Source of the DNA: a virus
Taxonomy: Duplodnaviria; Caudoviricetes
Length of the DNA: 64,000 nt
IMG/VR virus record: IMGVR_UViG_3300032317_000216
Coordinates: 64,641 to 128,640 of that record
Direction: 5' to 3' (one strand)
This document shows positions 6,795 to 60,586 of this stretch, in pieces (the stretch's first letter is position 1; every line of letters starts with the position of its first letter). The translations under genes and the position numbers were made by a program. A model generated the notes under the pieces. The model was not told the origin of the DNA. It searched no databases and saw only the letters and a list, made by a program, of their open reading frames with translations.

Positions 6795-6802
6795 ATAATT
6801 TT

Positions 6803-7390: not shown

Positions 7391-7405
7391 CTATTTGTTT
7401 TAATT

Positions 7406-8056: not shown

Positions 8057-8057
8057 A

Positions 8058-11207: not shown

Positions 11208-11210
11208 AAT

Positions 11211-12101
11211 ATGAATGTTTACTATGAAGATACTTTCTTAAGAGGATCAGATATAACAGAATGCTTCAAGAAAGCATATAAATTTGCATCGCCTGAAACT
11301 TGCGACTATTTTTTATGTACGTCTATAGATAACGACATTTGTAATGTAAAAGATGCGCTAAAATCATTTATTCTCAAAGCAAAAACAAATAATAAAAAAG
11401 TTATTTTTCTCGGTCAAGGTGATATCGAAGAAGGGTATATACCTGAAACAATAGGCTATAACTTCAAAAATAACTTGCTTAAAACTAAAAAATTTAAAAA
11501 TGAATTCTCTCTTACATCTTTATCAGAAGAAAGAGTACCTGACAAAAAATTTATACCATATGTTGGTGAGTGTTCTGTAGGTTTTTGTGGTGCAAGCGAC
11601 AGATTTGATAGAGAAAAATATTTAATGAATCTTAGAAATTCTCACTTAAAAACAAACTTTATTATTAAAAATGGCCCTAAGTGGGGAACCTCCTCTCATG
11701 CAGAGTGCGCAAATGAAGAAACTACAAGAAGAATTCAAGAAGAATCAATAGATATTTTTTATAAAAATATGACTGAAAATCTGTTTACTCTTTGTGTAAG
11801 AGGCTGGGGCAACTACAGCTACCGTTTTTGCCAAACTATTTGCATGGGCAGAATACCTGTTCTTATAGATACAGACTGCGTTCTTCCTTTTGAAGAAATT
11901 TTTAATTATAATGATTATATAGTTAGAGTTGCCCCTGATCAAAATATTGCACAAGCTATAGATAATTTCTATGCTATTAATAAAGAAAAACTAATTAATA
12001 TACAAGAACAACTTTACCAATTTGGCAATGAATATCTTACACCCGTAGGTTTTATGCAAAATCTTCATAAATTAATAGAGAAATATGAGTGTAGTAATTA
12101 A
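11211..12101 (+). CDS. exostosin-family (GT47-like) glycosyltransferase
   Basis: FTLCVRGWGNYSYRFCQTICMGRIPVLIDTD; paralog of 9429..10337. Confidence 0.85.
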   Translation: MNVYYEDTFLRGSDITECFKKAYKFASPETCDYFLCTSIDNDICNVKDALKSFILKAKTNNKKVIFLGQGDIEEGYIPETIGYNFKNNLLKTKKFKNEFSLTSLSEERVPDKKFIPYVGECSVGFCGASDRFDREKYLMNLRNSHLKTNFIIKNGPKWGTSSHAECANEETTRRIQEESIDIFYKNMTENLFTLCVRGWGNYSYRFCQTICMGRIPVLIDTDCVLPFEEIFNYNDYIVRVAPDQNIAQAIDNFYAINKEKLINIQEQLYQFGNEYLTPVGFMQNLHKLIEKYECSN

Positions 12102-12897
12102 AAAAAGCATGGGAAGATTTGGAAACCAATTGTTTCCTTATTTTACTGGCAGAATAATTTCTGAAAATTTAAAATTTAAACTTTATGGCCCCACTGAGTC
12201 TGATAGAGAATTTATGCTTCATGGCTTAGATTTGAATTACAATAAAAAAGAATATGCTCAATATGAAGAGCCTGTACAGCTTTTAGGGGACCATAGTAAT
12301 TCTGATCATTTCTATCACAGCGATATAAACCATTTTAATAAACTCTGCCATCCTAATTTCAATATTCTTGATATTATAAATGATAACACACCAAGAAAAA
12401 TAATACTAGATGGATATTTTCAGCGCAAAGGCTTTTTTTTACCTTTTAGAGAAAATATTATTGAATGGTTCAATCCAACAATCTATTCAGTAAATGATAC
12501 AGATACAGCTATTCACATACGTTTAGGAGATCTGCTTTTTCCTAACTTGAGAAAACACTTACTTCCACCGGATTACTATGAAGAAGCTATCAAACTTTGC
12601 CCAACAGGCAAGCTGACCATATGCACAGACTCTCCTGAAAATATATTCATACAATACCTAGTAAAAAAATATAACGCTACTGTATTTAAAGACACAGAAA
12701 AAAATACAATTTCTTTTCTAGCAGCTCATAATAATTTAATTTTAAGTCAAGGATCATTTAGCTTTTGGGCAGGATTTATGTGTAATGGTTCTAATATTAT
12801 TAATGCGCTGCCAAAGACTGGATGGAATAGTAGCGTGGATGATGTTGATGTTGATGTGCTTTTAACAGGTGAAAAATACAAATATATTAAATTATGA
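12085..12897 (+). CDS. alpha-1,2-fucosyltransferase (GT11-like)
   Basis: GRFGNQLF, GYFQ, IHIRLGD and SFSFWA motifs. Confidence 0.85.
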   Translation: MSVVIKKSMGRFGNQLFPYFTGRIISENLKFKLYGPTESDREFMLHGLDLNYNKKEYAQYEEPVQLLGDHSNSDHFYHSDINHFNKLCHPNFNILDIINDNTPRKIILDGYFQRKGFFLPFRENIIEWFNPTIYSVNDTDTAIHIRLGDLLFPNLRKHLLPPDYYEEAIKLCPTGKLTICTDSPENIFIQYLVKKYNATVFKDTEKNTISFLAAHNNLILSQGSFSFWAGFMCNGSNIINALPKTGWNSSVDDVDVDVLLTGEKYKYIKL

Positions 12898-13703
12898 ACA
12901 ATTTTCTACTTGTACATATTGGTGACTCTTTACCAAATTTTTTAAAAACATGCATTCGACAAATTCAATTAACAAACAAAAATGCTGATATTATTCTAGC
13001 AACAAATTTAAATGTACAAGCACCTGGTATTAACTGTGTTAATATAAACAAGCTACAGCTTAAAGACACAGGGAGCTATTTTCAATATAATCCAGATCCA
13101 CTATGGATTACTTCATTAAAAAGAATTTTTATAATAGACCATATAATGCAAAAATTTAATTTGAAGAATACTGTTCACATTGATAATGATGTGCTTGTAT
13201 ACAATAATATTGATGAAATAAAAGACAAATTAATTGAACCACTCTATATTACACCTCATAAAAAAACAGAGTTTACTTTTGGTTTTTCTTTTGCCAGAGA
13301 ATCTAATGCTTTCTCTCTTTTATCAGAAAATATTTATAGATTAATCATGCTTGGTGAAAACGAAGTTAAAAAGCTTACTGGAGATGAAACACATGAAATG
13401 AGATTGCTTGGCTACACAAATAATAGAAATATTACCCCTTTACCAATTCATCCTAAAATAGGGCAGCCTATTAACAACTTTATTTTTGACCCCTCTTCTT
13501 ATGGACAATATTTAGATGGTACACCTAGTGGTCATTTGCCTGGGTTTATTGATCCACTGCAGATAGCGGGTAGTATATTTAAAGATGAAAATCCAGAAAT
13601 ATTGTTTATTAATAAAAAACCAATTCTTAAACACAACAATAATATTTATAATATCTTTAATCTGCATATACACAGCAAACAACTTTCAAAATATGAAATT
13701 TGA
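12894..13703 (+). CDS. putative glycosyltransferase (GT-A)
   Basis: HIDNDV DxD-like motif, FDPSSYGQYLDG and NLHIHSK; position in the island. Confidence 0.6.
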   Translation: MNNFLLVHIGDSLPNFLKTCIRQIQLTNKNADIILATNLNVQAPGINCVNINKLQLKDTGSYFQYNPDPLWITSLKRIFIIDHIMQKFNLKNTVHIDNDVLVYNNIDEIKDKLIEPLYITPHKKTEFTFGFSFARESNAFSLLSENIYRLIMLGENEVKKLTGDETHEMRLLGYTNNRNITPLPIHPKIGQPINNFIFDPSSYGQYLDGTPSGHLPGFIDPLQIAGSIFKDENPEILFINKKPILKHNNNIYNIFNLHIHSKQLSKYEI

Positions 13704-14415
13704 TATAGTTATACCCTATCATAGTAAAGATGAATATACAATTAAAAATTGCGTTAATTCATGCTCACATATTAAAGAAAAACAAAATATTTTTATTGTA
13801 TCTAAAAAAGAACTCAATGTTCCTGGTACTATTTGGATTAATGAAAATATATTTCCATTTAATACAGAAAAAATAATAAAGCTTAATTCCAGCATTCCAG
13901 AGCATAGGGCTGGTTGGTACTTGCAGCAATTAATAAAATTATATTCTTTTATTATACCAAATATAACGGATAATTTTTTAGTATTAGATTCTGATGTAAT
14001 TTTTCAAAAAGATATAACTTTTTTTAGAGATAATATACCCTTGTATTCATTTTCAAATGAATATACTCATGAATATTTTGAATGTATGAATTTGCTTAAT
14101 TCTTTCTTTGAAAGAAGTGTTAATGTATCAGGCATATGTCATCACATGATGTTTGAGAAAGAAATTTTGTTGGAGATTTTTAAGCTTATTGAGAAGCCTA
14201 ATAAAGAAATTTGGGAATCAATTATAGAAAATATTAAAAACTGGCACCATGGTTTTTCAGAATATGAATTATATTTTCATTACATAAATAAAAAATACCC
14301 TAAAAAATATTCCATTAGAAAGCTATACTATGAAGATGTTGATGATTTTATGACACATACGCCAAGTAATAATTTAGATTATATAGCAAATCATGCATGG
14401 AGACGTCAAAAATAA
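13693..14415 (+). CDS. putative glycosyltransferase (DUF6492-like)
   Basis: GWYLQQLIKL, LDSDV and FSEYELY motifs. Confidence 0.7.
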   Translation: MKFDIVIPYHSKDEYTIKNCVNSCSHIKEKQNIFIVSKKELNVPGTIWINENIFPFNTEKIIKLNSSIPEHRAGWYLQQLIKLYSFIIPNITDNFLVLDSDVIFQKDITFFRDNIPLYSFSNEYTHEYFECMNLLNSFFERSVNVSGICHHMMFEKEILLEIFKLIEKPNKEIWESIIENIKNWHHGFSEYELYFHYINKKYPKKYSIRKLYYEDVDDFMTHTPSNNLDYIANHAWRRQK

Positions 14416-14416
14416 A

Positions 14417-15289
14417 ATGAATTTTATTACTGGAGAAAAACTTCAAGAATTTGCACATGTAACAGTGGCTCTTAATACTGAAAATAATTACAACTCAGAG
14501 TTAGTTCAGACTCAAATAAGAAATACTAAAACACGGTGCTTTGTTTTTAGTCCCTATAAAACAGATGTTGTAATACCCTCAGAGCTAAGAACAGCTAAAA
14601 TTGTTTTTACTTACCCTCATATTCTAGATTATTTTTTTAATTATGTTTTTCCTCAAATAGATGGACCTATTACTCTTATCACTCACAATAGCGATGTAGG
14701 CGTTGATTCAAGGTATATACCTTTCTTAAATTCAAATAAAATAAATAGATGGTTTTGTCAGAATAAATCCACCATACACTCAAAACTTTCTTCTCTTCCT
14801 ATAGGAATTGCAAATAGACAATGGCCTCACGGCAATATACAAAATATTGAAGAAATTATAAAATTAAATTTACCGAAAAATAATCTCGCTTTAAAAACTT
14901 TTGATTTGTCCACAAATACCCAACACAGGCAACAAATAAACATTCAAACAGAGCAAAATGGGTTTGTAATGTCGCCGCCTATGCCTCATATTGAATATCT
15001 CAAACAACTCAAGCAATCTTATTTCTGTTTTTCCCCATTTGGAGGAGGTGCTGATTGTCATAGAATATGGGAGTGTCTTTATTTAGGCTGTGTTCCTATT
15101 GTACCAAAACATGAATATGTTTTTAGAGACTTTGAAGAACTTCCAATTCTTTTTGTAGATAATTTTGCCACCATTACAAAAGATTATTTAAAATTAAGAA
15201 TACCCGAATTCTTTCCTTTTGACAATTTCAATTTAAACAAATTAGATTTAAATTACTGGAAAAAAGAGATATGTGGGCATATAATATAA
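14417..15289 (+). CDS. exostosin-like glycosyltransferase
   Basis: ITHNSD, LPIGIAN and FCFSPFGGGADCHRIWECLYLGCVPIV motifs. Confidence 0.75.
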   Translation: MNFITGEKLQEFAHVTVALNTENNYNSELVQTQIRNTKTRCFVFSPYKTDVVIPSELRTAKIVFTYPHILDYFFNYVFPQIDGPITLITHNSDVGVDSRYIPFLNSNKINRWFCQNKSTIHSKLSSLPIGIANRQWPHGNIQNIEEIIKLNLPKNNLALKTFDLSTNTQHRQQINIQTEQNGFVMSPPMPHIEYLKQLKQSYFCFSPFGGGADCHRIWECLYLGCVPIVPKHEYVFRDFEELPILFVDNFATITKDYLKLRIPEFFPFDNFNLNKLDLNYWKKEICGHII

Positions 15290-15292
15290 ATT

Positions 15293-15973
15293 ATGACTGT
15301 AGGGTTATTTCAAGGACAACTGAGAGGGTTTAAGCATGCATTTAACTACATCCAAAACAACCTCTTACAGCCACTTGAATGTAAAGAGCTAATTTTTTAT
15401 TTACCAGAAGATGATAAAGATAAAGAAATTGAAAAGTTTATTCCTAGCTCATATAATGCTCATATAGTGTATGAAAAAGAAATATATCATGATGAAGAAG
15501 GGCTTCTAAATACAGATAACTTGACTTACAATGACAAGGGAATTGAATATAATAAATACCCACTAAGAGGCAGACTTCAGCATTATCTCATTCAGCTTTA
15601 CAATAAAAAAAGAGTATTTGAGATTTATAAAAATTCTTTCCCTGACTGCAGTAATCATAGGATATTGTTTATGCGGCCTGATCTTGCTCCGCATATACCT
15701 CTTAACCCAAATGAATTAAACTTTAATTGTTTAAATGTACCCAATTGTCCTCAATGGTTTGGCGTTTACGATAGGATGTGTATTGGTAATTTTAAAAACG
15801 TTGAAACGTACTCTCTATTGTACGACAATATAAAAAACAAACCATCGTTTAGCCATAATAACCCTGAATCAAGACTTAAGTTCTGGTTAGATTATAACAA
15901 TATTTGTACTAATATTTTTCAATTAGGTGAAGTATTGCGCGTAAGCATGGATGGTACATGCAGAGACTCCTAA
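15293..15973 (+). CDS. putative glycan-modifying protein
   Basis: GQLRGF N-terminus, MRPDL and NPESRL pattern seen in viral glycosylation clusters. Confidence 0.5.
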   Translation: MTVGLFQGQLRGFKHAFNYIQNNLLQPLECKELIFYLPEDDKDKEIEKFIPSSYNAHIVYEKEIYHDEEGLLNTDNLTYNDKGIEYNKYPLRGRLQHYLIQLYNKKRVFEIYKNSFPDCSNHRILFMRPDLAPHIPLNPNELNFNCLNVPNCPQWFGVYDRMCIGNFKNVETYSLLYDNIKNKPSFSHNNPESRLKFWLDYNNICTNIFQLGEVLRVSMDGTCRDS

Positions 15974-15989
15974 ATTTATAAAAAATATT

Positions 15990-16766
15990 ATGAAAAAGGG
16001 GCTTGTAGGTTTTACTAACGAGAAATATATTGCGTTAACAGAAGTTTTTGTTGATTCTGTTTTAAAATTTTCTTCCTTGCCTGTAACTATAATTACTATG
16101 GGATTTGATCACGACTTTAAAAATAGTCGCGTAAATAACAAGCGGGTAGATCTTGAATTAAATCAAAATTCGTGGGTAGAATCAACCCTCAGTAAGTATA
16201 TAGCTTGCGCTCAAACACCATATGATGTTACTTTTTATGCAGATATCGACATGGTTATAACAAAAAAATTTGACCCATGGTTCAATAGTATTGAGCCCAC
16301 TGTTGCTTCTCTTGAAAAAATATTTAGCTGCAAACACCCTCATTTTCCTTGCAATGAAACTAATCATTCTTTATTACAATTTTTTAAAAAATTTGGTCTC
16401 GGTATAACTCCAGATTATATTTTAACTGCAGGGTTTGCTTATAACCACAAATTCATACCTCGCTTTTTAGACGCTCATAAGAGAGCAATTAGTCTCCTTA
16501 AAGACGGTGTTGAATTTCCAACAGGTGAGGAATGCTTTTTGAACGCATTTCTAATGCAAAACAACCTCATACAAGACAGCGGGTATGATTATCTGCCAAA
16601 CGCTGAGCTTTTTGAGTCATACATCAACAAATCCTTAGATGCTAAAAAGTACATACACCCTATATACCTGGAACAAGGCAGATACATAAATCCCGTTCTT
16701 TTTCATGGAAATAAAGATATTAACCGAGCTCGGTATATGATAGAAGAAATTGAAAAACACACTTGA
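15990..16766 (+). CDS. putative glycosyltransferase (GT8/GT-A-like)
   Basis: FYADID DxD motif, EECFLN and FHGNK motifs. Confidence 0.65.
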   Translation: MKKGLVGFTNEKYIALTEVFVDSVLKFSSLPVTIITMGFDHDFKNSRVNNKRVDLELNQNSWVESTLSKYIACAQTPYDVTFYADIDMVITKKFDPWFNSIEPTVASLEKIFSCKHPHFPCNETNHSLLQFFKKFGLGITPDYILTAGFAYNHKFIPRFLDAHKRAISLLKDGVEFPTGEECFLNAFLMQNNLIQDSGYDYLPNAELFESYINKSLDAKKYIHPIYLEQGRYINPVLFHGNKDINRARYMIEEIEKHT

Positions 16767-21787: not shown

Positions 21788-21794
21788 ATACTAT

Positions 21795-41332: not shown

Positions 41333-43465
41333 ATGGCCAATCAAATCACAAAAATAATCATAAGAAACGGTACAGATCTACAAAGAAGAACAGCCAACAT
41401 CACAGGTATCACATTTAATCTATCTGAGCCTGCTTATTGCACTGATACTCAGCGGCTGTACATTGGCAATGGTGCTGTGGGTGGAATCCCTGTTAGTACA
41501 AGAAATCTGGGACGAGTAGATACTCTGTTTGGTAGTTATCTGCAGACTGGTTTTAGTGAACAAGCGTACATTGCTTTCACGTCACAAGGTGCAGAAGTAG
41601 GTGATATTATTTTTGATGCTTCTACAAGAACATTGTATAGTTTGAGCTCCAGAAGCAACTTTGCAACCAGTGAAATACCTGCAGTATCTGATTTAGTTAA
41701 ATATGATGCTTCTACTCTTATAAATGCCATACAATTTTATTATGATTCAGATCTAAAATTGAACCTTGAAACTCAAGGTGTAGCAGTTACAAATTTAAAT
41801 AGTAACGTTATTGATGGAATCACTCTCACAAAACCAACACCTGCAACACCAATTAGTATTGCACTAGGGTCAGTAAGCAATGGTGTGGGTATTGAACACT
41901 TGAAGCACATACAAGACAATTCTCTATATATTAACTCTAAGAACGACATTGATGCACCAATGATTCAGCATGTTGGTCCAGGTCAAGTTGTAGGCAGGAC
42001 ATTCTCTTCAACTCTTACATCTATCAGCATTAATCAAATTCTCAACACAGCTTCATATACTGCTGGGCCAGGTTTAATCATAACATCTACTCCAGAGAGT
42101 GTATTGTTTGATCTTGACCCATTATATATTTCTTGCGGTAATCAATTTTATATAAACAGAAACACCAGTCTGAATGGTAATTTGAGCTGCATAAACAGCA
42201 TAGCCACAGGCAATGCTGGTGTTAGTGGCAGCTTTACTGTGGGTGGCAGCGCTAACATAATAGGTCCTTTGAGATGCACAAGCAGTGTAACAACAGGCAA
42301 TGCTGGTGTGAGTGGCAACTTTACAACAAATGGCAATGCATTCATAGATGGCAACACCACCCTAGGTAATGCCAACACAGATACAACCATCATAAGGGGC
42401 ATAACCAAGATTGCTGACAGTTCTGCTACTAATGGCATACTATTTGGTTCAGGTGATGCAAATTATGATACCAATCTGTACAGAAGTGCTGCAGTTACAT
42501 TGAAGACGGATGATAACTTTATTGTTGATTTGAATTTAAATGTTAACGGCAGTACCACTCTAGGTAATACAGATGCAGATGCAACTATCATAAGAGGCAT
42601 AACCAAGATTGCTGACAGTTCTGCTACTAATGGCATATTGTTTGGCGCAAACAATACAAGCTATGATACCAACCTGTATCGATCTGATTATGATGAATTA
42701 AAAACAGATGATAGTTTAATTGTTAATTTAGATCTGAGTGTAAATGGCAATACTACACTTGGCAATACAAATGCAGATACAACCATCATAAGAGGCATAA
42801 CCAAAATTGCTGACAGCTCTCAAACAAATGGTATCTTGTTTGGATCTGGTGATGCAAATTATGACACAAACTTGTACAGAAGCGCTGCAGTTACATTAAA
42901 GACAGATGATAACTTCATTGTTGATTTGAATCTAACTGTTAACGGCAATGCATCCGTAGGTGGCAATACTACTCTTGGCAATGCAAATGCAGATGCAACT
43001 ATCATAAGAGGCACAACTAAAATTGCTGATAGCTCCTCTGCTAGAGGCATACTATTTGGTTCAGGTGATACAGATTATGACACCAATCTGTACAGAAGTG
43101 CTGCAAATACTCTAAGGACTGATGACAACTTCATTGTTGCAGGCAATCTCAATGTTAGCGGAAGCACAAACATAACTGGAAACTTGGATGTCACAGGTCT
43201 CATAACATCCCCCACTTTTGGAGCACTAAAAAACATGGCATCATTTGCTTCCCCGAGAATTAATGCTGGTACTATTCCACTTTTTAGAGCCACATACGAC
43301 ATACAAATTATCACAACACCTAGTGTTAACGCAACAGGTGGAACACCTACCTTCAGTCCTGCAATAACCAATGGTACAACTATTGCCGCAGGTACTCTGG
43401 TAAGTCTAGTGGCTGGCACAAGTCTCACAAATGTGAGCATTTCGTTTGGATATAAATACACCTAA
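41333..43465 (+). CDS. tail fibre protein with Mtd_N-like N-terminus and internal repeats
   Basis: KIIIRNGT...EPAYCTDTQRLYIGNG N-terminus; four ~66-aa repeats. Confidence 0.8.
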   Translation: MANQITKIIIRNGTDLQRRTANITGITFNLSEPAYCTDTQRLYIGNGAVGGIPVSTRNLGRVDTLFGSYLQTGFSEQAYIAFTSQGAEVGDIIFDASTRTLYSLSSRSNFATSEIPAVSDLVKYDASTLINAIQFYYDSDLKLNLETQGVAVTNLNSNVIDGITLTKPTPATPISIALGSVSNGVGIEHLKHIQDNSLYINSKNDIDAPMIQHVGPGQVVGRTFSSTLTSISINQILNTASYTAGPGLIITSTPESVLFDLDPLYISCGNQFYINRNTSLNGNLSCINSIATGNAGVSGSFTVGGSANIIGPLRCTSSVTTGNAGVSGNFTTNGNAFIDGNTTLGNANTDTTIIRGITKIADSSATNGILFGSGDANYDTNLYRSAAVTLKTDDNFIVDLNLNVNGSTTLGNTDADATIIRGITKIADSSATNGILFGANNTSYDTNLYRSDYDELKTDDSLIVNLDLSVNGNTTLGNTNADTTIIRGITKIADSSQTNGILFGSGDANYDTNLYRSAAVTLKTDDNFIVDLNLTVNGNASVGGNTTLGNANADATIIRGTTKIADSSSARGILFGSGDTDYDTNLYRSAANTLRTDDNFIVAGNLNVSGSTNITGNLDVTGLITSPTFGALKNMASFASPRINAGTIPLFRATYDIQIITTPSVNATGGTPTFSPAITNGTTIAAGTLVSLVAGTSLTNVSISFGYKYT
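42349..43160 (+). repeat. four tandem ~198-bp (66-aa) intragenic repeats in the tail fibre
   Basis: GNTTLGN..DTTIIRGITKIADSS..NGILFG....YDTNLYRS....LKTDD repeated 4 times. Confidence 0.92.
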
Positions 43466-50847: not shown

Positions 50848-51045
50848 ATGAACATAAACATTAGCACAGATTTAAAGGTAAATAAAAAGGTTGTTGACAC
50901 ACTTAGCGTTGTATTGGACTCAGAGGAGTTAACCAATCTAGTGAAGACCAAGGGGCTGGCTGCTGGCAATCAGGCCATTGACAAATTTGTAGCCAGATAC
51001 ACAGCGGATCTGAAGAAGAAGCTAGCTGCAGCAATCAATCATTAA
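50848..51045 (+). CDS. hypothetical protein
   Basis: ORF following a TAAGTA late-type motif. Confidence 0.5.
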   Translation: MNINISTDLKVNKKVVDTLSVVLDSEELTNLVKTKGLAAGNQAIDKFVARYTADLKKKLAAAINH

Positions 51046-51087
51046 TTTTAACAAAATTGCTGGTTAGTTTACATAAGTAATAATAAC

Positions 51088-52116
51088 ATGGCCACACCTC
51101 CTAATTTTCAAGATCTAGCCAGACAACAGAGAACAGCAACATTCAACAGACTTTCATTTAACAATGTGGTCAATAGCGGCAACCCCACAAGCAATGATGT
51201 GGCTATAGTTGCACCATCCAATGAAGCTGCTCCTATTCAACCTGGGTATACCACCACAATCAGATCAACATATCCCAAAGCTGTATTAGCAGAAGATTTT
51301 GGTAACCGTTGTGCAACGTTCATACAAAGCCTTTGTGGATATGCACCTAGCAGTGTGTTAACAGCTGCATCCATATGCTCTGATGATAAAAACGCCCCCA
51401 TATTTGCAAATAATGATTTTGGTCAATATCCTGTGTCTTTGCAGCAATTTCTTGGACCATTCTTTGCTGGTGGTATTGGTGGCTTCCCTTTCCCTGGCAT
51501 TGTGGGTCTGTTTGCCTACATGAGCCATTATACAAATGCTAATAATGGTGCTCTCTTTATTTACGTACAGCCTCACATTGGCATCACAGCAGATGGTCAA
51601 GTGGGGTTCATGCGCAGAAGAGATCAAGAAGCCTCTCTGGCGCTCTCACAAACTTGTGGTGCTGTAAATGCAGCTCAAGCAAGAGTCGTGGGGCCTTTGA
51701 GTGCTGTAGCACCAACCTTTGGTGCAGGTCAAGAGTTCAGTCAGAATGATTTTCAACAGTATACACTGGTCAACACTCTGTGGAGCAATACATCTGTAAG
51801 AGCAGCACTAACTGGCGCATCCAATGCACAGGGTGGCACATATGCACAGAGAATGGTCATAGCTACTAATGCTATTCTTTCAGCTGCCAACAGCACCATT
51901 GAGCAAATATTACCAGCTGCTTACACTGCACTAAGTGGTGCACTAGGAGCTTCATATAATTTCAAGCCTGATGTGTTTGTGAGCGCTGGCACATTCATCA
52001 ATGTGGATGATGGGTACAAAGCATATGTGGATGTGCAAAGCTTCAAACTGTACAGCGCCAATGGTTCATATACCACCTACACATCTCAATTCACTGCTGG
52101 CTTGCTGCCTTCCTAA
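51088..52116 (+). CDS. LCIB/LCIC-family (theta-type) carbonic anhydrase fused to a conserved N-terminal leader
   Basis: SICSDD, F.GG.GGFPF.G..G..A..SH, PHIGI...G..G...R and TCGA motifs (Cys-His-Cys Zn triad). Confidence 0.82.
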   Translation: MATPPNFQDLARQQRTATFNRLSFNNVVNSGNPTSNDVAIVAPSNEAAPIQPGYTTTIRSTYPKAVLAEDFGNRCATFIQSLCGYAPSSVLTAASICSDDKNAPIFANNDFGQYPVSLQQFLGPFFAGGIGGFPFPGIVGLFAYMSHYTNANNGALFIYVQPHIGITADGQVGFMRRRDQEASLALSQTCGAVNAAQARVVGPLSAVAPTFGAGQEFSQNDFQQYTLVNTLWSNTSVRAALTGASNAQGGTYAQRMVIATNAILSAANSTIEQILPAAYTALSGALGASYNFKPDVFVSAGTFINVDDGYKAYVDVQSFKLYSANGSYTTYTSQFTAGLLPS

Positions 52117-52166
52117 TTTTTTTTTAAAGTCTCTTAAGTAATGGTAAATATAAATAATATTTATAC

Positions 52167-53237
52167 ATGGCTGTTGTACCAAATTTCAGGGATCTGGAGA
52201 GAGTAAGAAGACTGGCCGCTAACAACAGACTGTCTTTTAAACATGTAGTTAATAACGGATCTCCTGTAAGTCAGGGTGCCGCTGTACCTGTCTCGCCACC
52301 TGCACCAGCACCTGTGCCAGAACCAGTATATAATTATGTTATTAGTAATAATGCAGTTATACCTATTGTTAATTTGGAAGTACCAAACTACTTTATTGTT
52401 ACAACAACTGTGGACACATTTAGTGCTGTTTTTGATAATGAAACCTTGGGAATGTTAAATAATTTTGATGTAACTGACTTTGCAAGTTGCAATTTATCTT
52501 TAAACTATGGTACAAGTCTATCAGCTAACAATGAGGTAATTTTTGTAACTCAAAGTGTAACATTATCCAGTATTTCTAATAATTTATATACAATTTATTA
52601 CACCAACACAGGATCACTTATTGTAGGGTTTGCAGCTAGTAATGTTTATATACCACCTATTACAAGTTATCCGCCTGCGCCCACAGCCACACCAACTCCC
52701 ACAGCCACACCCACTATAACTCCCACACCCACTATAACTCCCACACCTACTATAACTCCCACACCCACTATAACTCCTACACCTGTACCTCCCACAGCTA
52801 CTCCAACCCCTACACCCACACGCACACCTGTACCTCCCACAGCCACACCAACTCCCACTACAACCAGAACACCCACACCCACGCCTACACCTACTTTTAC
52901 ACCCACAATCACTCCAACACCTACTATAACTAATACACCCACGCCCACACCTACTATAACTAACACACCTACACCCACAGCAACCAGAACACCCACACCC
53001 ACACCTACAATAACACTGACTCCAACACCTACCATCACACCCACGCCCACACCTACAATAACACTGACTCCAACACCTACCATCACACCCACGCCCACTG
53101 CAACTGGTCAACCCACATTTACACCCACGCCCACACCTACCATCACCAGAACACCCACACCTACACCTACTATAACCCCTGCTCCTACTATTACACCTAC
53201 TCCTCTTATAGGTTCCATTTTTAATTTAATATCATAA
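52167..53237 (+). CDS. conserved-leader protein with long Thr-Pro (mucin-like) tail
   Basis: Shared leader; ~170 aa of PT/TPT repeats; TATAAATA upstream. Confidence 0.75.
52672..53204 (+). repeat. degenerate Thr-Pro coding repeat (e.g. ACTCCCACACCCACTATA units)
   Basis: Direct reading of DNA and translation. Confidence 0.9.
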
Positions 53238-53247
53238 ATATTTTAAC

Positions 53248-55206
53248 ATGAAAAAAATATACATCATAACATGTGACAGTGAGGAAAAAATTGATGCGAT
53301 TATAAATCAATTGATTACTCCTGGAGTTGCTCCTGCAGGTACAGAAAACACTGAGCTGCTTGATTTTACAGACATACATGATTACATGCCATATTCAAAT
53401 TTTTCAATTCAGGTGGAAATGACATCTGAAGCAGCAGATGCACTAAGGCAACATCCATTAGTTTTTAGTGTAGAAGAAAAATCTGATGCATTGGCAAAAT
53501 TGCATTACATGGGTCAAAACAGAACCCTCAACCCAGTATACAGCTCCTCGGATAATTTCAGTCACGATAATTGGGGACTGGCACGGTGTTCTAGTTTATC
53601 GGGATCTCTTCCCTTTAATTGCAACTTTACATATACAAAAACAGGTTCTGGTGTGGATGTGGTAATTATTGATTCTGGCATAAAATTCGATCATCCAGAA
53701 TGGAGAGATAGCAATGGCAATTCCAGATTGCAACAAATTAACTGGACCTTGTATAACCCTGTGACAGCTAGCACAACACAAACAGTCACAGTACCTGCAG
53801 GAACAGGAGGAGGGTATTATATCAATGGTGTGGCAAGAGACACAGTTTATGTTATCACTGACAAAGTGCAGCCCACCACACAAAGAAGAACCACGGTATA
53901 TAATTTTGTGCTGGATGGCTCCACTGCATCTCACCCGTTTTTTATTGGATCAGCAGTGAACGTTCCTTTCAATGCTAACAGAGTATCCAACAATGGTGGC
54001 ACAACTGGTACTGTTTCATTAACTGTGTTTCCCCTCAACAATGCATTGTCCACTGGTCAGAATACCATGTATTATTGGTGTGGTTCACATGCTGGCATGG
54101 GAGGTGTGATCACCAGAACCAGCTACAATACACAAGCTGATAATCAATATTTTTACAGTGATGCAAATGGACATGGAACTCACTGCACTGGGACTGTGGC
54201 AGGCTCTTCATTTGGTTGGGCCACAGATGCAAACATATACAGCATGCATTTAAATTTTGATGATGCATATGGGTTTGGCACTGGCACATCTGGTCTCATA
54301 GAAGCATATGGGTTGTTACTAAACTGGCACAACACAAAACTACAATCTGTTGCATTATCCAGCAGGCCCACAGTTACAAACAACAGCTATGGATGGGATC
54401 CAGGTGTATTGCATGACTCTGTGAATCAACAAGTCAAAGCTTTAACTGATGCAAAAATACATTTTGTGCATTCAGCAGGCAATGATGGCGTGCTCATTAC
54501 TGTGCCCTCTGATCCTCTGTACGACACCATAAGAAATGGATATTACTGCAGAGAGCCTTCACCATGTTACCCTTCCACTCAATGGACTGTGCAAGCCAAC
54601 AACCCTGTCATATGTGTGGGTGCCACCGGGTCCTATTCTGTCAATGGAAGCTTAACAGGAGCTCCATACAATTATGCAGTACTCAACAATGAAACTTTGA
54701 AAGCAGAGTATTCCAATTATGGCAAGGGGGTCAGCATCTATGCACCAGGCACATACATAAACAGTGCACTACCTACTACATCGCAAGCAACATACTTGAA
54801 TGGAGCATTGGGTGCATATGGGTGTGGCAAATACAGCGGCACTTCCATGGCTGGTCCTCAAGTGGCAGGCATTCTGGCCACCATGCTGCAAGACATGCCA
54901 CACATAACACCATTGAGCGCCAAACAGCGGCTCCTGGACTTCAGCTATCTAGGGTCCATAAGTGCAACCAACAGTTTTGTGGCATACCGAGGCACCAATG
55001 CATATGCACTGAGTGGTGGTGCAAATGCTGTGGTGTCTCAGTACCCTCCCAAGAAGATCATAGTACCTCAAACAGCTTTTAATTTTTTAACATTCAATGG
55101 ATTGAATTATAGCAACAGCACTGCAACTGTAAGGTTGAGCAACATCATATTGGACTCCACAGTGACTGCTGTCAATTCATCTGGCAACATGACATACACA
55201 AATTAA
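53248..55206 (+). CDS. subtilisin-like S8 serine protease with inserted cupredoxin-like domain
   Basis: Catalytic IIDSG, HGTHCTG, SAGN and SGTSMAGP; insert contains SHPFFI and YYWCGSHAGMGG. Confidence 0.88.
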   Translation: MKKIYIITCDSEEKIDAIINQLITPGVAPAGTENTELLDFTDIHDYMPYSNFSIQVEMTSEAADALRQHPLVFSVEEKSDALAKLHYMGQNRTLNPVYSSSDNFSHDNWGLARCSSLSGSLPFNCNFTYTKTGSGVDVVIIDSGIKFDHPEWRDSNGNSRLQQINWTLYNPVTASTTQTVTVPAGTGGGYYINGVARDTVYVITDKVQPTTQRRTTVYNFVLDGSTASHPFFIGSAVNVPFNANRVSNNGGTTGTVSLTVFPLNNALSTGQNTMYYWCGSHAGMGGVITRTSYNTQADNQYFYSDANGHGTHCTGTVAGSSFGWATDANIYSMHLNFDDAYGFGTGTSGLIEAYGLLLNWHNTKLQSVALSSRPTVTNNSYGWDPGVLHDSVNQQVKALTDAKIHFVHSAGNDGVLITVPSDPLYDTIRNGYYCREPSPCYPSTQWTVQANNPVICVGATGSYSVNGSLTGAPYNYAVLNNETLKAEYSNYGKGVSIYAPGTYINSALPTTSQATYLNGALGAYGCGKYSGTSMAGPQVAGILATMLQDMPHITPLSAKQRLLDFSYLGSISATNSFVAYRGTNAYALSGGANAVVSQYPPKKIIVPQTAFNFLTFNGLNYSNSTATVRLSNIILDSTVTAVNSSGNMTYTN

Positions 55207-55208
55207 CT

Positions 55209-55778
55209 GTGCAACAGGTGACACACATGACCGACAAATTGACTGTGGTGGTGTCCAGATACAATGAAGATACACAATGGCTGAACAACATTCAAGGCCA
55301 CAAAATCATCTTCAACAAAGGCAATAAGATAGCAGACAATTGCATTGCATTGCCAAACATTGGCAGAGAAACACACACTTTATGTCACTACTTGTACAAT
55401 TTTTATGATGAACTGAATGATTACACTTTGTTTCTGCAAGGCAACCCATTTGAACACATGCATTGTGTGAATGATTTGTATGCATTCATTGAACACTTTG
55501 AAACAGCAGATGAAGTCATGGGATTGGGCATTTACATGTCTGATGCATATCATCTCAATTCCATAAAGAAAATAGAAGATTATTTGAACATTGACAAGAA
55601 AACCAACATGTTTTATACCAATTCACAATATTTGATACCCAGAAAAAATATTGTGAAGAGAAACAGGGAATTTTATAAAAAATTACTGGAGCTGCATTAC
55701 GCTGATGTTGCTGATGTGGTCATACCAGATGTTCCTTGGGTTCTGGAAAGAATGTGGTGGAACATGTTCAAAAATTAA
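55209..55778 (+). CDS. DUF3431-like protein
   Basis: VVSRYNED..WL, LPNIGRETHT, FLQGNPFEH and LERMW motifs. Confidence 0.75.
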   Translation: MQQVTHMTDKLTVVVSRYNEDTQWLNNIQGHKIIFNKGNKIADNCIALPNIGRETHTLCHYLYNFYDELNDYTLFLQGNPFEHMHCVNDLYAFIEHFETADEVMGLGIYMSDAYHLNSIKKIEDYLNIDKKTNMFYTNSQYLIPRKNIVKRNREFYKKLLELHYADVADVVIPDVPWVLERMWWNMFKN

Positions 55779-55807
55779 TGCATTGAATTTTTTTTCGGCC
55801 TTCCAGG

Positions 55808-55995
55808 GTTCCCCTTACTCCACAGCAGCGTAGCCGCCCCTGGCACCGCCCAGATATATGGTTCTCAGAACATAAGTAATAAGAGACATGGCTACACCTC
55901 CTAATTTTTCAGACTTAGCAAGGAAACAGAGATTAGCTGTTAACAATAGGCTATCTTTTAATAGGGTGGTTAACAACGGATCCCCTGCAAGCCAA
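55808..55995 (+). repeat. copy 1 of duplicated GC-rich upstream element + promoter + leader cassette
   Basis: Near-identical to 59680-59761 over ~80 bp (gccgcccctggcaccgcccagat ... cagaacataagtaataagag.catggc), continuing into the leader codons. Confidence 0.9.
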
Positions 55996-56355
55996 GGCGA
56001 TAGTATACCTGCAACACCACCAGCATCAGTTCCAGGGCCAGTAGTTGATAATGCTCCCTATGTTGCTCAGTACATACCAAATGTACAACAAGGACAAACA
56101 GTTAATATTGGCAATGAATCAACAGTGGTTTCTACACAATTGGGTGTGAACAATCACACTATTATAAAAGACGGTGTGAACATAAATATTAAAAAAATAT
56201 ACGATGCAAACGCAAATTATCTTGAAGTTACCATGAGCGATACAGGATTAACATATCGGGTAAATTTTAATGAAACAACATTTCTACCAATCAATGGTGT
56301 TGAAACAAAGATGGTGTTCACAGATTTATTAGCGGAAGGTAGCATATGGGAATAG
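55888..56355 (+). CDS. conserved-leader hypothetical protein
   Basis: MATPPNFSDLARKQRLAVNNRLSFNRVVNNGSP leader. Confidence 0.75.
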   Translation: MATPPNFSDLARKQRLAVNNRLSFNRVVNNGSPASQGDSIPATPPASVPGPVVDNAPYVAQYIPNVQQGQTVNIGNESTVVSTQLGVNNHTIIKDGVNINIKKIYDANANYLEVTMSDTGLTYRVNFNETTFLPINGVETKMVFTDLLAEGSIWE

Positions 56356-56591
56356 CATCATGGTGGGGTGGGGATGAAGACGGCGATTTAAACCCCCCTA
56401 CTCCTGGCTGTGACTACTGGGCAGGTAGAACAAGGTATGATAAATTATGTGGTAAAAATGAGTACAAATGTCCAGGTGAACAAAACAAAAAAGATAATCC
56501 TGCAAATGAAGATTGTCCAGAATGTACTAAGAAAAAGGCAAAGCCTATATATGAAGGAAATATATGTTGCATGTGTTACACTTGTGAGTGA
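56346..56591 (+). CDS. small Cys-rich protein
   Basis: Nine Cys in 81 aa; overlaps the upstream stop codon. Confidence 0.45.
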   Translation: MGIASWWGGDEDGDLNPPTPGCDYWAGRTRYDKLCGKNEYKCPGEQNKKDNPANEDCPECTKKKAKPIYEGNICCMCYTCE

Positions 56592-56611
56592 AAATAAAGA
56601 GGTTATAGAAT

Positions 56612-58822
56612 ATGCCAAGTTATTATTTTAAAATTCCAGCTCTTATAAAAACGAATTACGGTGTAATTAATTACAATCGCTTAAATCTTACTGTCGCTTC
56701 AACACTAACTTCTTCAACTGGATTGACAGCCAGTACTTGGTACGACACTGATAGAATTCAATATCAGCTTAATCCCACTCTATCTGCAGGTCAAGTTGCT
56801 AAGGTGCTGCCTGCTGCATTTCCGTTTGTCACATCAGCTTATAACATTTCACTTGGTTTACCAGGTCTTAAAGTAAGCGCTAAAAGAAACAAGATACCCA
56901 TAACTTTTTATAATAGCAGTACCAGAACATATACTTACAGTGGATCACCCGATTTCAATTATTTTTACCCTTCATTAAGAACTCGCGTATTTTATAAAAA
57001 TATACCCAAAGATGTTACCATTACATCAATCAATTCAAGTGCAAAAACATTTCGTACATCTACTGATGCATGGAAGTATAATATAGCTAGCAATAATTTC
57101 TTTAATAATGATTTTTATGCTCTTGACCAAACAGTAGAAGCTACAGATGACACTGCAGGTACCTGGAAACTATTTCCATACTATAGAGTTGATGCGCTAG
57201 AAAAAAACACTCTCAATAAGTTCTATAAAAGAATATTGCAATCCCCTGTTATAGGTGTCAAGCGGGACACTACTTACAATCAAACTGCTTCATTTACTGT
57301 GCCTTTTGCATTATATTATAAGATAGATTATTATGTTGATAGATTTTTTATACCAACCACAGAAGAACAACGACGATCCAATCAAAGCAATCCTGCTGGC
57401 AGATTGATTTACGATAAAAGTGTTTCATTTATTGATTATAAACTCATAACTGTGCCATTGTCAACAGCAAATGTTTCTCTATCATCTTATAAAACAGTAT
57501 TATTACAATCTCAAACACCACCATTAGTGAACAGTGACATAAGAATTAACAGTAATTACATATTTAGCAACAATCAAGCATCAAGCTCTTCTATTGAATC
57601 AATTAATTGCTCTAGATATAATGATTTATCTGGCTCAAGCATTGATCATAAATTTATTACTCAGAAGATATACCCACTATCTGCAACTAATACAGGTATT
57701 AAGCACATATCTGCAGGCCCAGCTTTAAGCGCTTGGGGTGGATTTGATGCATCAGATGATCATGTAATTGTTTCAGATACCTTTAAGAATGAATTGCATA
57801 TCTATAGAATAGATAATACAACTAATGAGCCATTTTATGCTAATATTGTACCTCACACAATAGTAAAACCAGCATCATCTGTAAGAGGAATGCTCCAGAC
57901 ATCAATTTCAGGGTACGGCAGAAATTTGATCATTGATTCAAGATACAAGCGCAAAAATACACTTGACGTGGTGGCTAATAGTTATGTTGCAACTGTGAGT
58001 GGTAAGCGAACCAATGCAATTGAAGTTGCCACTCTATCTATTGCCAACAGTGCATATCAAAGAGAATTTCATATATTTGACTTTGAATATCCTCATTTAA
58101 GCTCCAATGCTGTGAGCGCAAATGAAATATCAAACATGTGCTTAATGTTAGACAATGAATCAATCACTGTATATACATCTTTAGTAGTAATAAGGCCCGG
58201 TGTTATATATAATGGTAATAAAGGCATAGTTGAAGTGTATGGTTGCAGTGCCAACACACCCATTAAATTATACAAAATAATAACTATTGCTGATACAAGC
58301 TTGAGTGCTGTGTCTGCAGCTGTTATAACAAACATTTGCACTGGTGAATTAGGAACATTTTGTTTTACAGTTTCATCCCCTTCAAATGCATGTGTTGAAG
58401 TTTATGATATTGATGCGCGTTCAACAGCCACATCAGCTGCATCCTTGACTGCTTTAAGTGGGGCGAAAACAACATTTGCATTTGAGTTATCAGCAGATAG
58501 AAAAGCATCTGTTTACAATTATGAAAATACAGATAATAGTTTTGGAAAAGCTATTTATTTTGATAATGCATTGGGATATGATCCATTCTTTGAAAACCAA
58601 ATTCTCAACACAAACCGTCTGTATGTACAGAATAATAATAAGACATTTATTTTTGAAGAGTTTCAAAATAAATTCATACCTCTTAACACAGTATCAGGCA
58701 ATTTTAATTCAATACGTGCGTACTTTAATGTGTTTTGCTCTCTTTCCACAGTAGCTACTAACTCACAGATATCTAAACATACAAATGTAAATTTATTATC
58801 TTCTTTTGAGTTGAAACAATAA
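56612..58822 (+). CDS. large hypothetical (probably virion) protein
   Basis: 736-aa Ser/Thr/Asn-rich ORF with LSA motifs like other structural proteins in this window. Confidence 0.6.
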   Translation: MPSYYFKIPALIKTNYGVINYNRLNLTVASTLTSSTGLTASTWYDTDRIQYQLNPTLSAGQVAKVLPAAFPFVTSAYNISLGLPGLKVSAKRNKIPITFYNSSTRTYTYSGSPDFNYFYPSLRTRVFYKNIPKDVTITSINSSAKTFRTSTDAWKYNIASNNFFNNDFYALDQTVEATDDTAGTWKLFPYYRVDALEKNTLNKFYKRILQSPVIGVKRDTTYNQTASFTVPFALYYKIDYYVDRFFIPTTEEQRRSNQSNPAGRLIYDKSVSFIDYKLITVPLSTANVSLSSYKTVLLQSQTPPLVNSDIRINSNYIFSNNQASSSSIESINCSRYNDLSGSSIDHKFITQKIYPLSATNTGIKHISAGPALSAWGGFDASDDHVIVSDTFKNELHIYRIDNTTNEPFYANIVPHTIVKPASSVRGMLQTSISGYGRNLIIDSRYKRKNTLDVVANSYVATVSGKRTNAIEVATLSIANSAYQREFHIFDFEYPHLSSNAVSANEISNMCLMLDNESITVYTSLVVIRPGVIYNGNKGIVEVYGCSANTPIKLYKIITIADTSLSAVSAAVITNICTGELGTFCFTVSSPSNACVEVYDIDARSTATSAASLTALSGAKTTFAFELSADRKASVYNYENTDNSFGKAIYFDNALGYDPFFENQILNTNRLYVQNNNKTFIFEEFQNKFIPLNTVSGNFNSIRAYFNVFCSLSTVATNSQISKHTNVNLLSSFELKQ

Positions 58823-59133
58823 TTACAGTTCTTTCTGATTACGATGGGGCAGTATACCCTTAGTTGATTTATATCACTTCTAGTTCTTACGCAACTTGTT
58901 CATCTGAACGTGTTTACGCATGATAGTCATTTGTAGCTACTGTCACCAGTAGGATCGGACTATATCTTCACCTGTTAAGGTGCCGGGGGCTCTGGCTGGT
59001 TATTAAGGCTTCCTGTGCCTCCAGTAGTCTCTACACCTTCATGAAAAGCGTTTCATGCTTGGCTCGGTATTTTCTCTTTTGAGGTTTCCACCGAATTCAC
59101 CCAGTCTCGTAATTAGAAAGAACTGTAATTATT
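58818..59133 (-). ncRNA. group I intron ribozyme, apparently circularly permuted (opened in L2)
   Basis: Minus strand contains P3 CUGGGUG/CCCCCGG, P4 UUCGGU/ACCGAG, P5, P6/P6a, P7 GAGACUA/UAGUCC, P7.1, P8 CACCU/AGGUG, J8/7 AAGAUA and P9 with GUGA loop; P1 and the 5' strand of P2 lie downstream of P9; 27-bp terminal stem. Confidence 0.85.
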
Positions 59134-59232
59134 TATTGCCATTATGCATTTAATCTGAATAATGCATTGATTTTTTTGAGCAGCTGCATGATTTACATAT
59201 GGAACCAGGTTATTCATTGGATAATTAATGTT

Positions 59233-59652
59233 ATGAACGCCTTAAATTCAAACAACATCATTGGTGTAACAACCAAATTAATCATTGATTCAGATGCATT
59301 TGCACTTGAGCTCAAGAACCAACATGTTGAAATTTATCTGGACATAGAATCTTATCAAAAAGACATACACTGCAGCTGCAAAAAAAGAATAGAAAAGTAC
59401 ATCTCCAGAAATAAAAAAGCAATCAAACAGTTTGTCACTAGCTTCTACAACAGCAACATCAAATTGCAAGCCACTATAAACCGCGTCATCAAGCAAAATA
59501 CCTATGTTTCGCTCAGAGGCAAGGTGGCCACAATCCACAACTCTGATAAAGCTTGGGAGAAGTTCTATCGCAAAATGGTCGCCGACAATTGTTATTTCAG
59601 AGGATATTCAGTGGTTGCAGCTGGCAATGAGCTAAAAATATACTTTGTATGA
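59233..59652 (+). CDS. hypothetical protein (CSC motif), paralog of 49636..50064
   Basis: DIESY...HCSC, GKVATI and FRGYSV...LKIYFV. Confidence 0.6.
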   Translation: MNALNSNNIIGVTTKLIIDSDAFALELKNQHVEIYLDIESYQKDIHCSCKKRIEKYISRNKKAIKQFVTSFYNSNIKLQATINRVIKQNTYVSLRGKVATIHNSDKAWEKFYRKMVADNCYFRGYSVVAAGNELKIYFV

Positions 59653-59679
59653 ACAGTTAACAGTTCTTGCATTATTTGA

Positions 59680-59866
59680 GTTCCCCTATGCCACAGCGGC
59701 GCAGCCGCCCCTGGCACCGCCCAGATGTATGGGTTCCAGAACATAAGTAATAAGAGCCATGGCCAACCCACCCAATTTCATTGACCTGGCAAGAAAACAA
59801 CGATTGGCTACAAACAACAGACTGTCTTTCAAAAACGTGGTCAATGGTGGTTCCCCTGCATCTGAC
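59680..59866 (+). repeat. copy 2 of duplicated GC-rich upstream element + promoter + leader cassette
   Basis: See copy at 55808. Confidence 0.9.
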
Positions 59867-60586
59867 AATGTGCCCATGTCCAATGCACCTGGTGATGCAT
59901 CTGAAAACAATGAAATGATTGATACTGACAATGCAGTGGTACCGTTGTCTGCATTGCCTGCAGCAGATCCCATGTATGTAACAGTGCAATCTGCAGTAAC
60001 AGCAATAACTCTGGCTTTTGATGCCAATCAATACATGTCTTTTGTGAGCATATATGATGAAAATGCACCTGATGTGATATGGGCATTGTCTGCTGTGAAC
60101 ACACAAAATGTCACCAGTGACTATGATGTGATCAATGTGGGCAGTTACATCAGCTTGACAGCCAATGATACTGGTGACCAGGTCACTGTGTATTACGAAA
60201 GCACTGGTTCTGCCAGACTGGCTGTGGGCCGATCCACTGTGCCTTTTTATGGACAGTACAATGGCAACAATGCATGCACAAGCAACATATATGTGGGTGC
60301 CAGAACGTTCACCAGGCAACCTGGGTTGAGACGTGGGCGTCCATGGTATGCTTATGCTACCAATGATTCCAAGGTGGAATGGTCTGGTATACCTGTAATG
60401 GGTGCCACCAGGTATGTGAATGGCAAGTACTATGTAAATGACTTGCCAAATTGGCAATTGTACTCATGGTATGCAGCTCAATGGAATTTGGTTGGCAGAG
60501 TATACAATGTGGCATTTTATCCATGGCAAGCTGGTACATTTGCTGGTCTGAATGGTGCACCTCTGGGCAACTTTACCAGGTGTTAA
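59759..60586 (+). CDS. conserved-leader hypothetical protein
   Basis: MANPPNFIDLARKQRLATNNRLSFKNVVNGGSP leader; aromatic-rich C-terminal domain. Confidence 0.75.
   Translation: MANPPNFIDLARKQRLATNNRLSFKNVVNGGSPASDNVPMSNAPGDASENNEMIDTDNAVVPLSALPAADPMYVTVQSAVTAITLAFDANQYMSFVSIYDENAPDVIWALSAVNTQNVTSDYDVINVGSYISLTANDTGDQVTVYYESTGSARLAVGRSTVPFYGQYNGNNACTSNIYVGARTFTRQPGLRRGRPWYAYATNDSKVEWSGIPVMGATRYVNGKYYVNDLPNWQLYSWYAAQWNLVGRVYNVAFYPWQAGTFAGLNGAPLGNFTRC

Follow-up and report, generated by a model that had tools for sequence, protein, structure and literature searches.

Why would four late genes of one phage, with otherwise unrelated products, begin with the same peptide? The window analyzed here is a stretch of 64,000 nucleotides (positions 64,641 to 128,640 of the IMG/VR virus record IMGVR_UViG_3300032317_000216), the second half of a 128,640-bp contig whose completeness is rated 61%. 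It codes for a T4-type portal, a head scaffold-like protein, and a major head protein. Since this capsid protein is at best ~33% identical to that of any cultured phage, we place the contig with a deep-branching, uncultured T4-like phage. A basic peptide of ~40 amino acids (aa), which we call the leader, opens four co-oriented open reading frames (ORFs) on the plus strand, starting at 51088, 52167, 55888, and 59759. We found that it recurs in a hypervariable locus of related lake phages, where it is fused to many different payloads. On balance, the leader probably docks fibres or spikes onto the virion by their N-termini.

A Conserved Peptide Opens Four Genes of the Window

An earlier note, made from the DNA letters, had listed the four ORFs with their N-termini and drawn from them the consensus PNFxDLxRxxRxAxxNRLSFxxVVNxGxP. 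All four were found on the plus strand at those positions. A six-frame scan of the window allowing up to eight substitutions gave exactly four matches, in the same ORFs, and a profile search of the whole 128.6-kb contig returned the same four copies and no others. Among these copies, 21 of the 40 alignment columns are invariant. The shared N-terminal block, taken as ~35 aa in the note, is real, but its conservation reaches further, to residue ~39–40, and ends in G-S-P-x-S-Q-x-x-A.

Is this likeness simply the trace of a recent duplication? Over the first 35 codons, the copies share 59–70% of their DNA and 60–83% of their protein sequence. Across the leader, the pairwise proportion of synonymous differences (pS) was 0.65–0.89, which is saturated, compared with 0.16–0.28 for nonsynonymous differences (pN). 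The saturated synonymous sites, together with the retained amino acids, indicate that selection acts on the peptide and rule out recent duplication as the source of the likeness, one of the tests on which the earlier note had let its proposal stand or fall. The same saturation rules out conservation of the 5′ coding region at the RNA level.

No Pfam, PHROG, or NCBIfam family spans the leader, and the ESM Atlas gave no usable feature match. Residues 22–38 resemble the first beta-hairpin of BACON_2/MSP-type immunoglobulin (Ig)-like repeats, with 10 of the 17 residues identical to the repeat motif of the metagenomic protein P0025 and with per-repeat scores that are not significant. We treat this likeness of the leader's second half as a lead for strand-addition docking, not as evidence.

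Leader Genes Follow Late-Type Promoter Boxes

When are these genes expressed? An ATAA(A/G)TAATA box lies 5–7 nt upstream of each leader gene (8 nt for 52167). Ahead of 51088, the box ATAAGTAATA occupies 51073..51082 (+), 5 nt from the ATG, and its equivalents ahead of the other three genes lie at 52150–52159, 55872–55881, and 59743–59752 (+). The window holds nine such boxes against 1.2 expected by chance. One of them stands 4 nt ahead of the portal ATG (21781–21790), and nearly identical boxes stand ahead of the 25159 head gene and the 41333 fibre-like gene. Furthermore, a box of the late type was present ahead of every leader gene in the 24 related loci described below. The late-promoter motifs that the earlier note saw ahead of all four genes are thus borne out, and they argue that the leader genes are expressed late.

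In a subset of leader genes, a GC-rich element of ~55 nt with a GCGGC-GCA-GCCGC hairpin sits between a T-run and the late box. The window has one copy of this conserved non-coding element at 55812..55870 (+), directly upstream of the late box, and a second at 59683–59741 (+), the two belonging to a repeat (D3) of 77% identity over 178 nt. The element also precedes leader genes in eight sister loci (L006, L008, L011, L013, L016, L017, L020, and L022). Between loci, its DNA has changed less than the leader's synonymous sites have, and the element matches no Rfam family. It forms the upstream edge of the promoter–leader cassette and may be a terminator, a regulatory site, or a recombination border.

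The Leader Family Is Found in Freshwater Lakes

How far does the leader extend beyond this contig? Searching 1.84 billion cluster representatives with a profile built from the four leaders yielded 33 leader proteins of 71–808 aa. The leader occupies residues 1–40 in all but two of them (P0018, residues 33–72, and P0034, residues 19–53). Three giant proteins (P0016, P0025, and P0036) were rejected as members, since their scores added up weak hits to the opening strands of PKD or BACON/MSP Ig-like repeats. A metagenome scan with closer sequences gave 24 loci, every one on a freshwater-lake contig and all from one syntenic clade of T4-like phages. By a leader hidden Markov model (HMM), each locus carries one to three leader genes, which code for 49–1072 aa and all start with the leader. 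The HMM search and listing of fused domains that the earlier note had proposed thus produced 59 distinct leaders from the loci and cluster representatives combined, with payloads in ~22 sequence clusters.

Across the 59 leaders, M1, R12, and R15 are invariant, and P5, D9, L10, A17, L22, S23, G31, and P33 nearly so. The mean net charge is ~+3, and Glu is absent from 44 of the 59. The region that follows (residues 41–70) consists of 19% Pro and 14% Thr. No leader was found in cultured phages (INPHARED, tblastn), where only noise at E = 8 on gp8 genes appeared, in IMG/VR contigs other than the window's own, or in ~185,000 bacterial and archaeal species genomes (GTDB).

Two smaller features of the family were also seen. 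Just upstream of the island, two loci (L023:2226-2396 and L024:8512-8682) contain a 56-aa ORF whose degenerate start resembles a leader (15 bits); it is possibly a decayed leader gene. In addition, a C-terminal motif, (I/L)AGD.L.TI..(4-6)..T(T/S)I, ends very short leader proteins of 71–107 aa and the 227-aa P0020; it occurs in P0023, P0026, P0032, P0018, P0020, and L007:3803-4018, and could serve as another site of interaction or as a minimal cap.

Could the leader be a non-classical export or envelope-targeting signal, with the cargo working as free protein on the infected cell's surface or once the cell has lysed? The leader is basic and lies at the N-terminus, and two of the cargo types described below, a carbonic anhydrase and DUF5672, look more like auxiliary enzymes than fibres. 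On the other hand, its profile is polar throughout, without a hydrophobic run, just as the earlier note had argued in setting aside a Sec/Tat signal. There is no hydrophobic core, no Cys and no lipobox, and the R-R that some copies contain has no h-region behind it, so that Sec, Tat, and lipoprotein signals can all be rejected. A signal recognized by the host would also be expected in host genomes, and the bacterial and archaeal genomes gave no match. Finally, payloads of the gp38-adhesin and tailspike types are, as far as we know, virion parts wherever they have been studied. We consider export quite improbable.

The Leader Is Fused to Diverse Cargo

What does the leader carry? The first of the four genes (51088..52116, +) codes for a 342-aa protein, in which the leader (residues 1–40) and a short Pro/Ala linker are followed by an LCIB-type beta-carbonic anhydrase. 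The carbonic anhydrase named in the earlier note is confirmed as an LCIB family member by PF18599 (84.6 bits against a cut-off of 25). Residues C97, H163, and C190, with the neighbouring D99, align with the zinc site of the LCIB structures 6kfs and PtLCIB4 (5b5y). By this alignment, the cargo appears to be a genuine LCIB-type protein, with the LCIB_C_CA domain, Cys-His-Cys ligands, and an Asp near the first Cys. The LCIB gene is always the first leader gene of its locus and also the best conserved, with orthologues 93–94% identical in L006, L014, L018, and L023.

The second gene (52167..53237, +; 356 aa) joins the leader and a Pro-rich linker to a ~100-aa proximal domain, a beta-sandwich in the AlphaFold2 (AF2) model, and ends in a mucin-like Thr/Pro repeat of ~190 aa (25 copies with an 18-nt period), the Thr-Pro stalk that the note had described. 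The first 160 aa are 68–81% identical in L014, L021, L005, and L018, whereas the distal parts differ: a Thr/Pro repeat in the window, RCC1 in L005, and a protein of 1072 aa in L018. A retained leader and proximal domain with a varying distal part point to the classic layout of a receptor-binding protein.

The third gene (55888..56355, +; 155 aa) combines the leader and a Pro-rich linker with a 102-aa beta domain, delimited by comparison with sister loci. The fourth (59759..60586, +; 275 aa) has an acidic/Pro linker and a 230-aa payload that matched no family, and its product is identical to the metagenomic protein P0003. In family searches of the four window payloads, LCIB was the sole recognizable domain. 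The payloads were held to be unrelated, and the comparisons agree: past the leader and linker, BLASTP and hhalign showed no relation, barring one weak collinear BLASTP match between the 52167 and 59759 payloads (23%, E 0.003) that hhalign does not confirm. Homology among the window payloads was rejected at hhalign probabilities below 2%.

Elsewhere in the family, the cargo is more telling. A GP38 tail-fibre adhesin domain is present in L012 (28.5 bits, above the cut-off), a right-handed Beta_helix of the depolymerase type in P0017 (40.9 bits), RCC1 propellers in L021, L015, and L005 (60 bits), and a lectin-like Laminin_G_3 domain in L015. A leucine-rich repeat (LRR) payload (LRR_4) in L009 and a DUF5672 payload in P0022 both score above the Pfam cut-off. 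Receptor-binding or depolymerase cargo is therefore present in the family, in the form of GP38, Beta_helix, RCC1, Laminin_G_3, LRR, and the End_N_terminal module described below. To our knowledge, gp38 adhesins, beta-helix domains of the depolymerase/tailspike type, lectins, propellers, and LRR domains are virion-borne wherever they have been studied.

Such varied cargo behind one tag recalls the T4-type capsid-targeting sequence, which would load the leader proteins into the prohead for injection with the DNA. The logic is the same, with a conserved N-terminal tag, a promoter for each gene, and diverse payloads in a plastic T4-like locus; the internal proteins of T4 share only their targeting sequence (PMC3012670). 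However, the leader is 40 aa long instead of ~10, and since Glu is absent or stands at profile position 11, far from the leader end, there is no (L/I)-x-E site for the prohead protease. The capsid protein of the window phage, by contrast, presumably has LLE/CFE-type sites in its N-terminal piece. Moreover, payloads of up to 1072 aa, with beta-helices, LRRs, and mucin-like stalks, are unlike internal proteins. On length, missing protease site, and cargo type, we rejected this candidate as very unlikely, in line with the note's remark that the leader does not resemble the T4 10-aa sequence. The note's further idea that cargo might be packed into the virion finds no support either, given the lack of a T4-type protease site and the external-type payload domains.

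Modules Are Exchanged at the Leader

How did one peptide come to stand before so many domains? The island of leader genes is syntenic across the 24 lake contigs: a conserved gene run ends in a 65-aa gene (50848..51045, +; cluster c5), which is the left border of the island in all sister loci, variable leader genes follow, and a second conserved run comes after them. Among the window's leader genes lies a subtilase gene of family S8 without a leader (53248..55206, +; PF00082, 107.5 bits). The subtilase is 652, 750, 751, or 1073 aa long across the window and the sister phages (L023:4806-7061, L020:427-2679, and L014:6673-9894, the last of 1073 aa); its I9-like N-terminal region is kept, and its C-terminal modules vary.

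One of these modules links the subtilase to the third leader gene. Residues 54–155 of the 55888 product are 98% identical to residues 650–751 of the 751-aa subtilase of L023, and 94% identical to the corresponding part in L020. The window subtilase stops at that junction, and the module is preceded by a DUF3431 gene (55209..55778, +; domain match), the GC-rich element, a late box, and the leader with its linker. This arrangement suggests that the former last module of the window subtilase became the separate leader-tagged gene 55888. Similarly, P0028 is a leader joined to the C-terminal segment of the subtilase family.

A third case involves P0038, a protein of 2796 aa on an ENA contig of 33.5 kb. 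It begins with a diverged leader and a Thr/Pro linker of ~130 aa, after which come several pectate-lyase/beta-helix-like modules joined by Thr/Pro linkers, at least three of which are detected by Pfam. The start motif TPEQFGA-GDGVHDD is present twice, and one module opens with an endosialidase N-terminal extension (36.3 bits). The last module of P0038 returns as the payload of P0017 (470 aa), at 95.6% identity. Modules thus move between leader-tagged and untagged proteins, and the exchanges of 55888 with the subtilase, of P0017 with P0038, and in P0028 mark the block of late box, leader, and linker as a recombination border.

The subtilase and the linkers raise another possibility, namely that the leader is not a virion anchor but a handle for factors that modify or assemble the proteins, such as the glycosyltransferases, the subtilase, or a small chaperone like the upstream 65-aa protein; the tagged proteins may then still reach the virion by other means. 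Support comes from the glycosyltransferase genes, of which the window has at least seven, from the mucin-like Thr/Pro linkers that directly follow the leader in many members, from the presence of the subtilase inside the island in most loci, and from the leader end, S-P-x-S-Q-x-x-A, which is conserved like a processing site. A precedent is offered by the substrate-recognition domains of cytoplasmic O-glycosylation (FlmG, PMC7591256). Against this, nothing ties any glycosyltransferase to the leader, and the Thr/Pro repeat is missing from the 59759 protein, from the LCIB cargo, and from several more members. In addition, L006 has three leader genes and no subtilase, which rules out obligatory processing by that enzyme. 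We regard the handle as unlikely.

The Leader Is Predicted to Lack Its Own Fold

Does the leader fold by itself? We modelled two different leader proteins with AF2 from shallow alignments. In both, the leader came out as a low-confidence helix (residues 7–19) followed by disorder up to the payload, with no payload contact, whereas the proximal region of the 52167 protein (residues 54–157) reached a predicted local distance difference test (pLDDT) score of 86–90. These models are weak evidence and would fit a peptide that folds on a partner. For the two modelled payload domains, Foldseek returned nothing at E ≤ 0.001, and the best hits of a VIA fold search (Z 7.1 and 5.2) were at background level.

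Could the leaders bind one another instead? As an oligomerization element, the leader would bundle like or unlike chains into mixed fibre bouquets, possibly with the LCIB-like protein as the hub. The constant first position and high conservation of the LCIB-type gene, the amphipathic look of the modelled helix, and the division of the leader into position-specific subtypes, among them an LCIB type and a PPNF.DLAR type, would agree with this. However, neither heptads nor a coiled-coil pattern can be seen in the ~13 helical residues, nothing points to any contact, and a separate virion anchor would still be needed. Of all the explanations weighed here, this one seems to us the least probable.

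A Probable Docking Peptide for Virion-Borne Proteins

The docking-peptide reading, by contrast, draws together the N-terminal position of the leader, selection at the protein level, the late boxes, the cargo types, the conserved-proximal/variable-distal layout, the hypervariable syntenic locus, and the restriction to one clade. We propose that the basic leader of ~40 residues, having no fold of its own, would fold on binding one conserved site on the virion or on an adaptor, which might lie on the tail, baseplate, neck, or capsid. Once docked, it would tether the downstream protein by a flexible Pro/Thr-rich stalk, perhaps O-glycosylated. The cargo would be mostly modules that bind or degrade the host surface, plus one conserved carbonic-anhydrase-like enzyme. 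The late box, leader, and linker would act as a single 5′ block, placeable ahead of any domain, and because of this the clade could swap, split, and fuse cargo while the attachment chemistry stayed constant.

Several observations weigh against docking. The best-conserved cargo is the LCIB carbonic anhydrase, with an intact zinc site and no obvious role in a virion, and a DUF5672 domain is found in one relative. Several members of the family have no more than 49–91 aa. None of the four window payloads matches a receptor-binding family in Pfam, PHROG, or NCBIfam. PF07880 (gp9/gp10, the T4gp10-like branching domain) was not found in the contig, which is 61% complete and without the tail/baseplate module. 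Lastly, most known docking peptides are shorter (7–11 aa in K1-5/SP6) and lead into rigid trimeric spikes, where the leader is continued by long flexible Thr/Pro linkers.

The earlier note had pictured the leader as a modular tag fixing varied cargo to the virion, a natural phage display. With ~22 payload classes, attachment is the best-supported reading; the part about packaging into the particle has found no support. Display on the capsid is one possibility only, and the nearest precedent is a peptide docked to an adaptor of the tail or baseplate. In a bolder version, which we offer as a doubtful speculation, a repeated site on the capsid or tail would accept any plug-bearing protein and so build a cellulosome-like coat. 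On each virion, glycosylated mucin-like tethers would hold a mixture of depolymerases and adhesins, together with an active carbonic anhydrase and a protease module. A mobile block of GC-rich element, late box, and leader could split any multidomain gene so that its distal domain is displayed separately. If so, this would be a natural and evolvable phage display, with enzymatic cargo conditioning the host surface or microenvironment.

The leader is a new sequence family of known design; its enzymatic cargo is unexplained, and the shuffling of its modules has left an unusually clear record. It provides a ready catalogue of ~22 natural payload fusions, with clear gene splitting and fusion at the plug. 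Should it be a docking plug, it would be a short tag of defined sequence by which arbitrary proteins could be mounted on a T4-like particle, and it would account for the fast change of host-recognition modules in abundant uncultured lake phages. If virion-borne, the carbonic anhydrase would be a new kind of virion enzyme.

Genes Surrounding the Island

Which neighbouring features might bear on the leader genes? About 8 kb upstream lies a conventional tail-fibre-type gene (41333..43465, +), which has a late box ahead of it and an Mtd_N N-terminal domain (PF18454, 27.8 bits against a cut-off of 26.3), with no leader. It codes for 710 aa in the window and for 417–446 aa in some sister loci, and is a second, conventional variable fibre gene. 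The glycosyltransferases form an island at 4712..16766 (+) with matches to GT2, GT47/exostosin-like, and methyltransferase families. Their products are possible modifiers of the Thr/Pro stalks; we list the island as context, its membership in the system being unproven.

A ~150-aa protein bearing a C-x-C motif is encoded twice, by diverged paralogues at 49636–50064 (−) and 59167–59652 (+) that are inverted relative to each other and bracket most of the leader-gene island; the sister loci retain one or both. A group I intron match of full model length in Rfam (58936–59167, −; 55.5 bits against a gathering score of 50) occupies the spacer between a 736-aa and a 161-aa gene, on the strand opposite to both. 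Directly after the last leader gene lies a tRNA-Met (CAT) gene (60962–61034, −).

Comparison with Known Systems

Is there a precedent for such a peptide? The closest are secondary receptor-binding proteins with conserved N-terminal docking peptides: the tailspikes of K1E/K1-5/SP6, which dock on the adaptor gp37, and gp63.1 of G7C, which docks on gp66 (Latka et al. 2019, PMC6872550). Such peptides are also present in Klebsiella phages of the KP32, KP34, Menlow, and PhiK64-1 groups. In these systems, the conserved peptide docks onto a T4gp10-like branching domain or an adaptor, differs between phage groups, and varies in length (PMC6872550). Docking of a peptide to the branching domain has been validated experimentally in Klebsiella phages (PMC13352976). 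The shared docking-peptide design is therefore already known in kind (PMC6872550 and PMC13352976), and because the principle is known from coliphages and Klebsiella phages, the advance here lies in breadth and detail, not in kind.

The likeness is close in several respects. In both systems, a short, phage-group-specific N-terminal sequence is common to otherwise unrelated proteins of one phage. These proteins are encoded in a variable stretch flanked by syntenic genes, and horizontal transfer replaces one cargo by another; the surface of G7C gp63.1 is positively charged, as is the leader. On the other hand, the leader has 35–40 aa instead of mostly 7–11, is joined to a flexible Pro/Thr linker where the known peptides meet a rigid spike neck, and carries cargo that includes a carbonic anhydrase and very small proteins. 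It also belongs to a deep-branching T4-like phage, in whose 61%-complete contig no T4gp10-like branching protein was found.

The T4 capsid-targeting sequence (IPI–III/Alt, PMC3012670) resembles the leader as an N-terminal tag with diverse payloads in a plastic T4-type locus, and it can be used as a protein-delivery tag (PMC3012670). The leader differs from it in being four times longer, in having no prohead-protease site, and in its external-type payloads.

In the cellulosome, many catalytic and binding domains compete for a common cohesin receptor, each by way of a small dockerin and a Pro/Thr-rich linker. Dockerins are Ca-binding folds of ~70 aa, usually C-terminal. The comparison with the leader is an analogy only, with no relation in sequence or fold, and any cohesin-like partner of the leader is a pure hypothesis.

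In the hyperplastic regions of T4-type genomes, genes are reportedly shuffled by promoter-stem-loop (PeSL) cassettes (Arbiol et al. 2010). There too, a regulatory block conserved at the starts of genes is found repeatedly at the edges of exchanged modules, as the GC-rich hairpin element, late box, and leader are here. In contrast to PeSL, the leader block carries late instead of early promoters and runs on into the coding sequence, where it is kept at the protein level.

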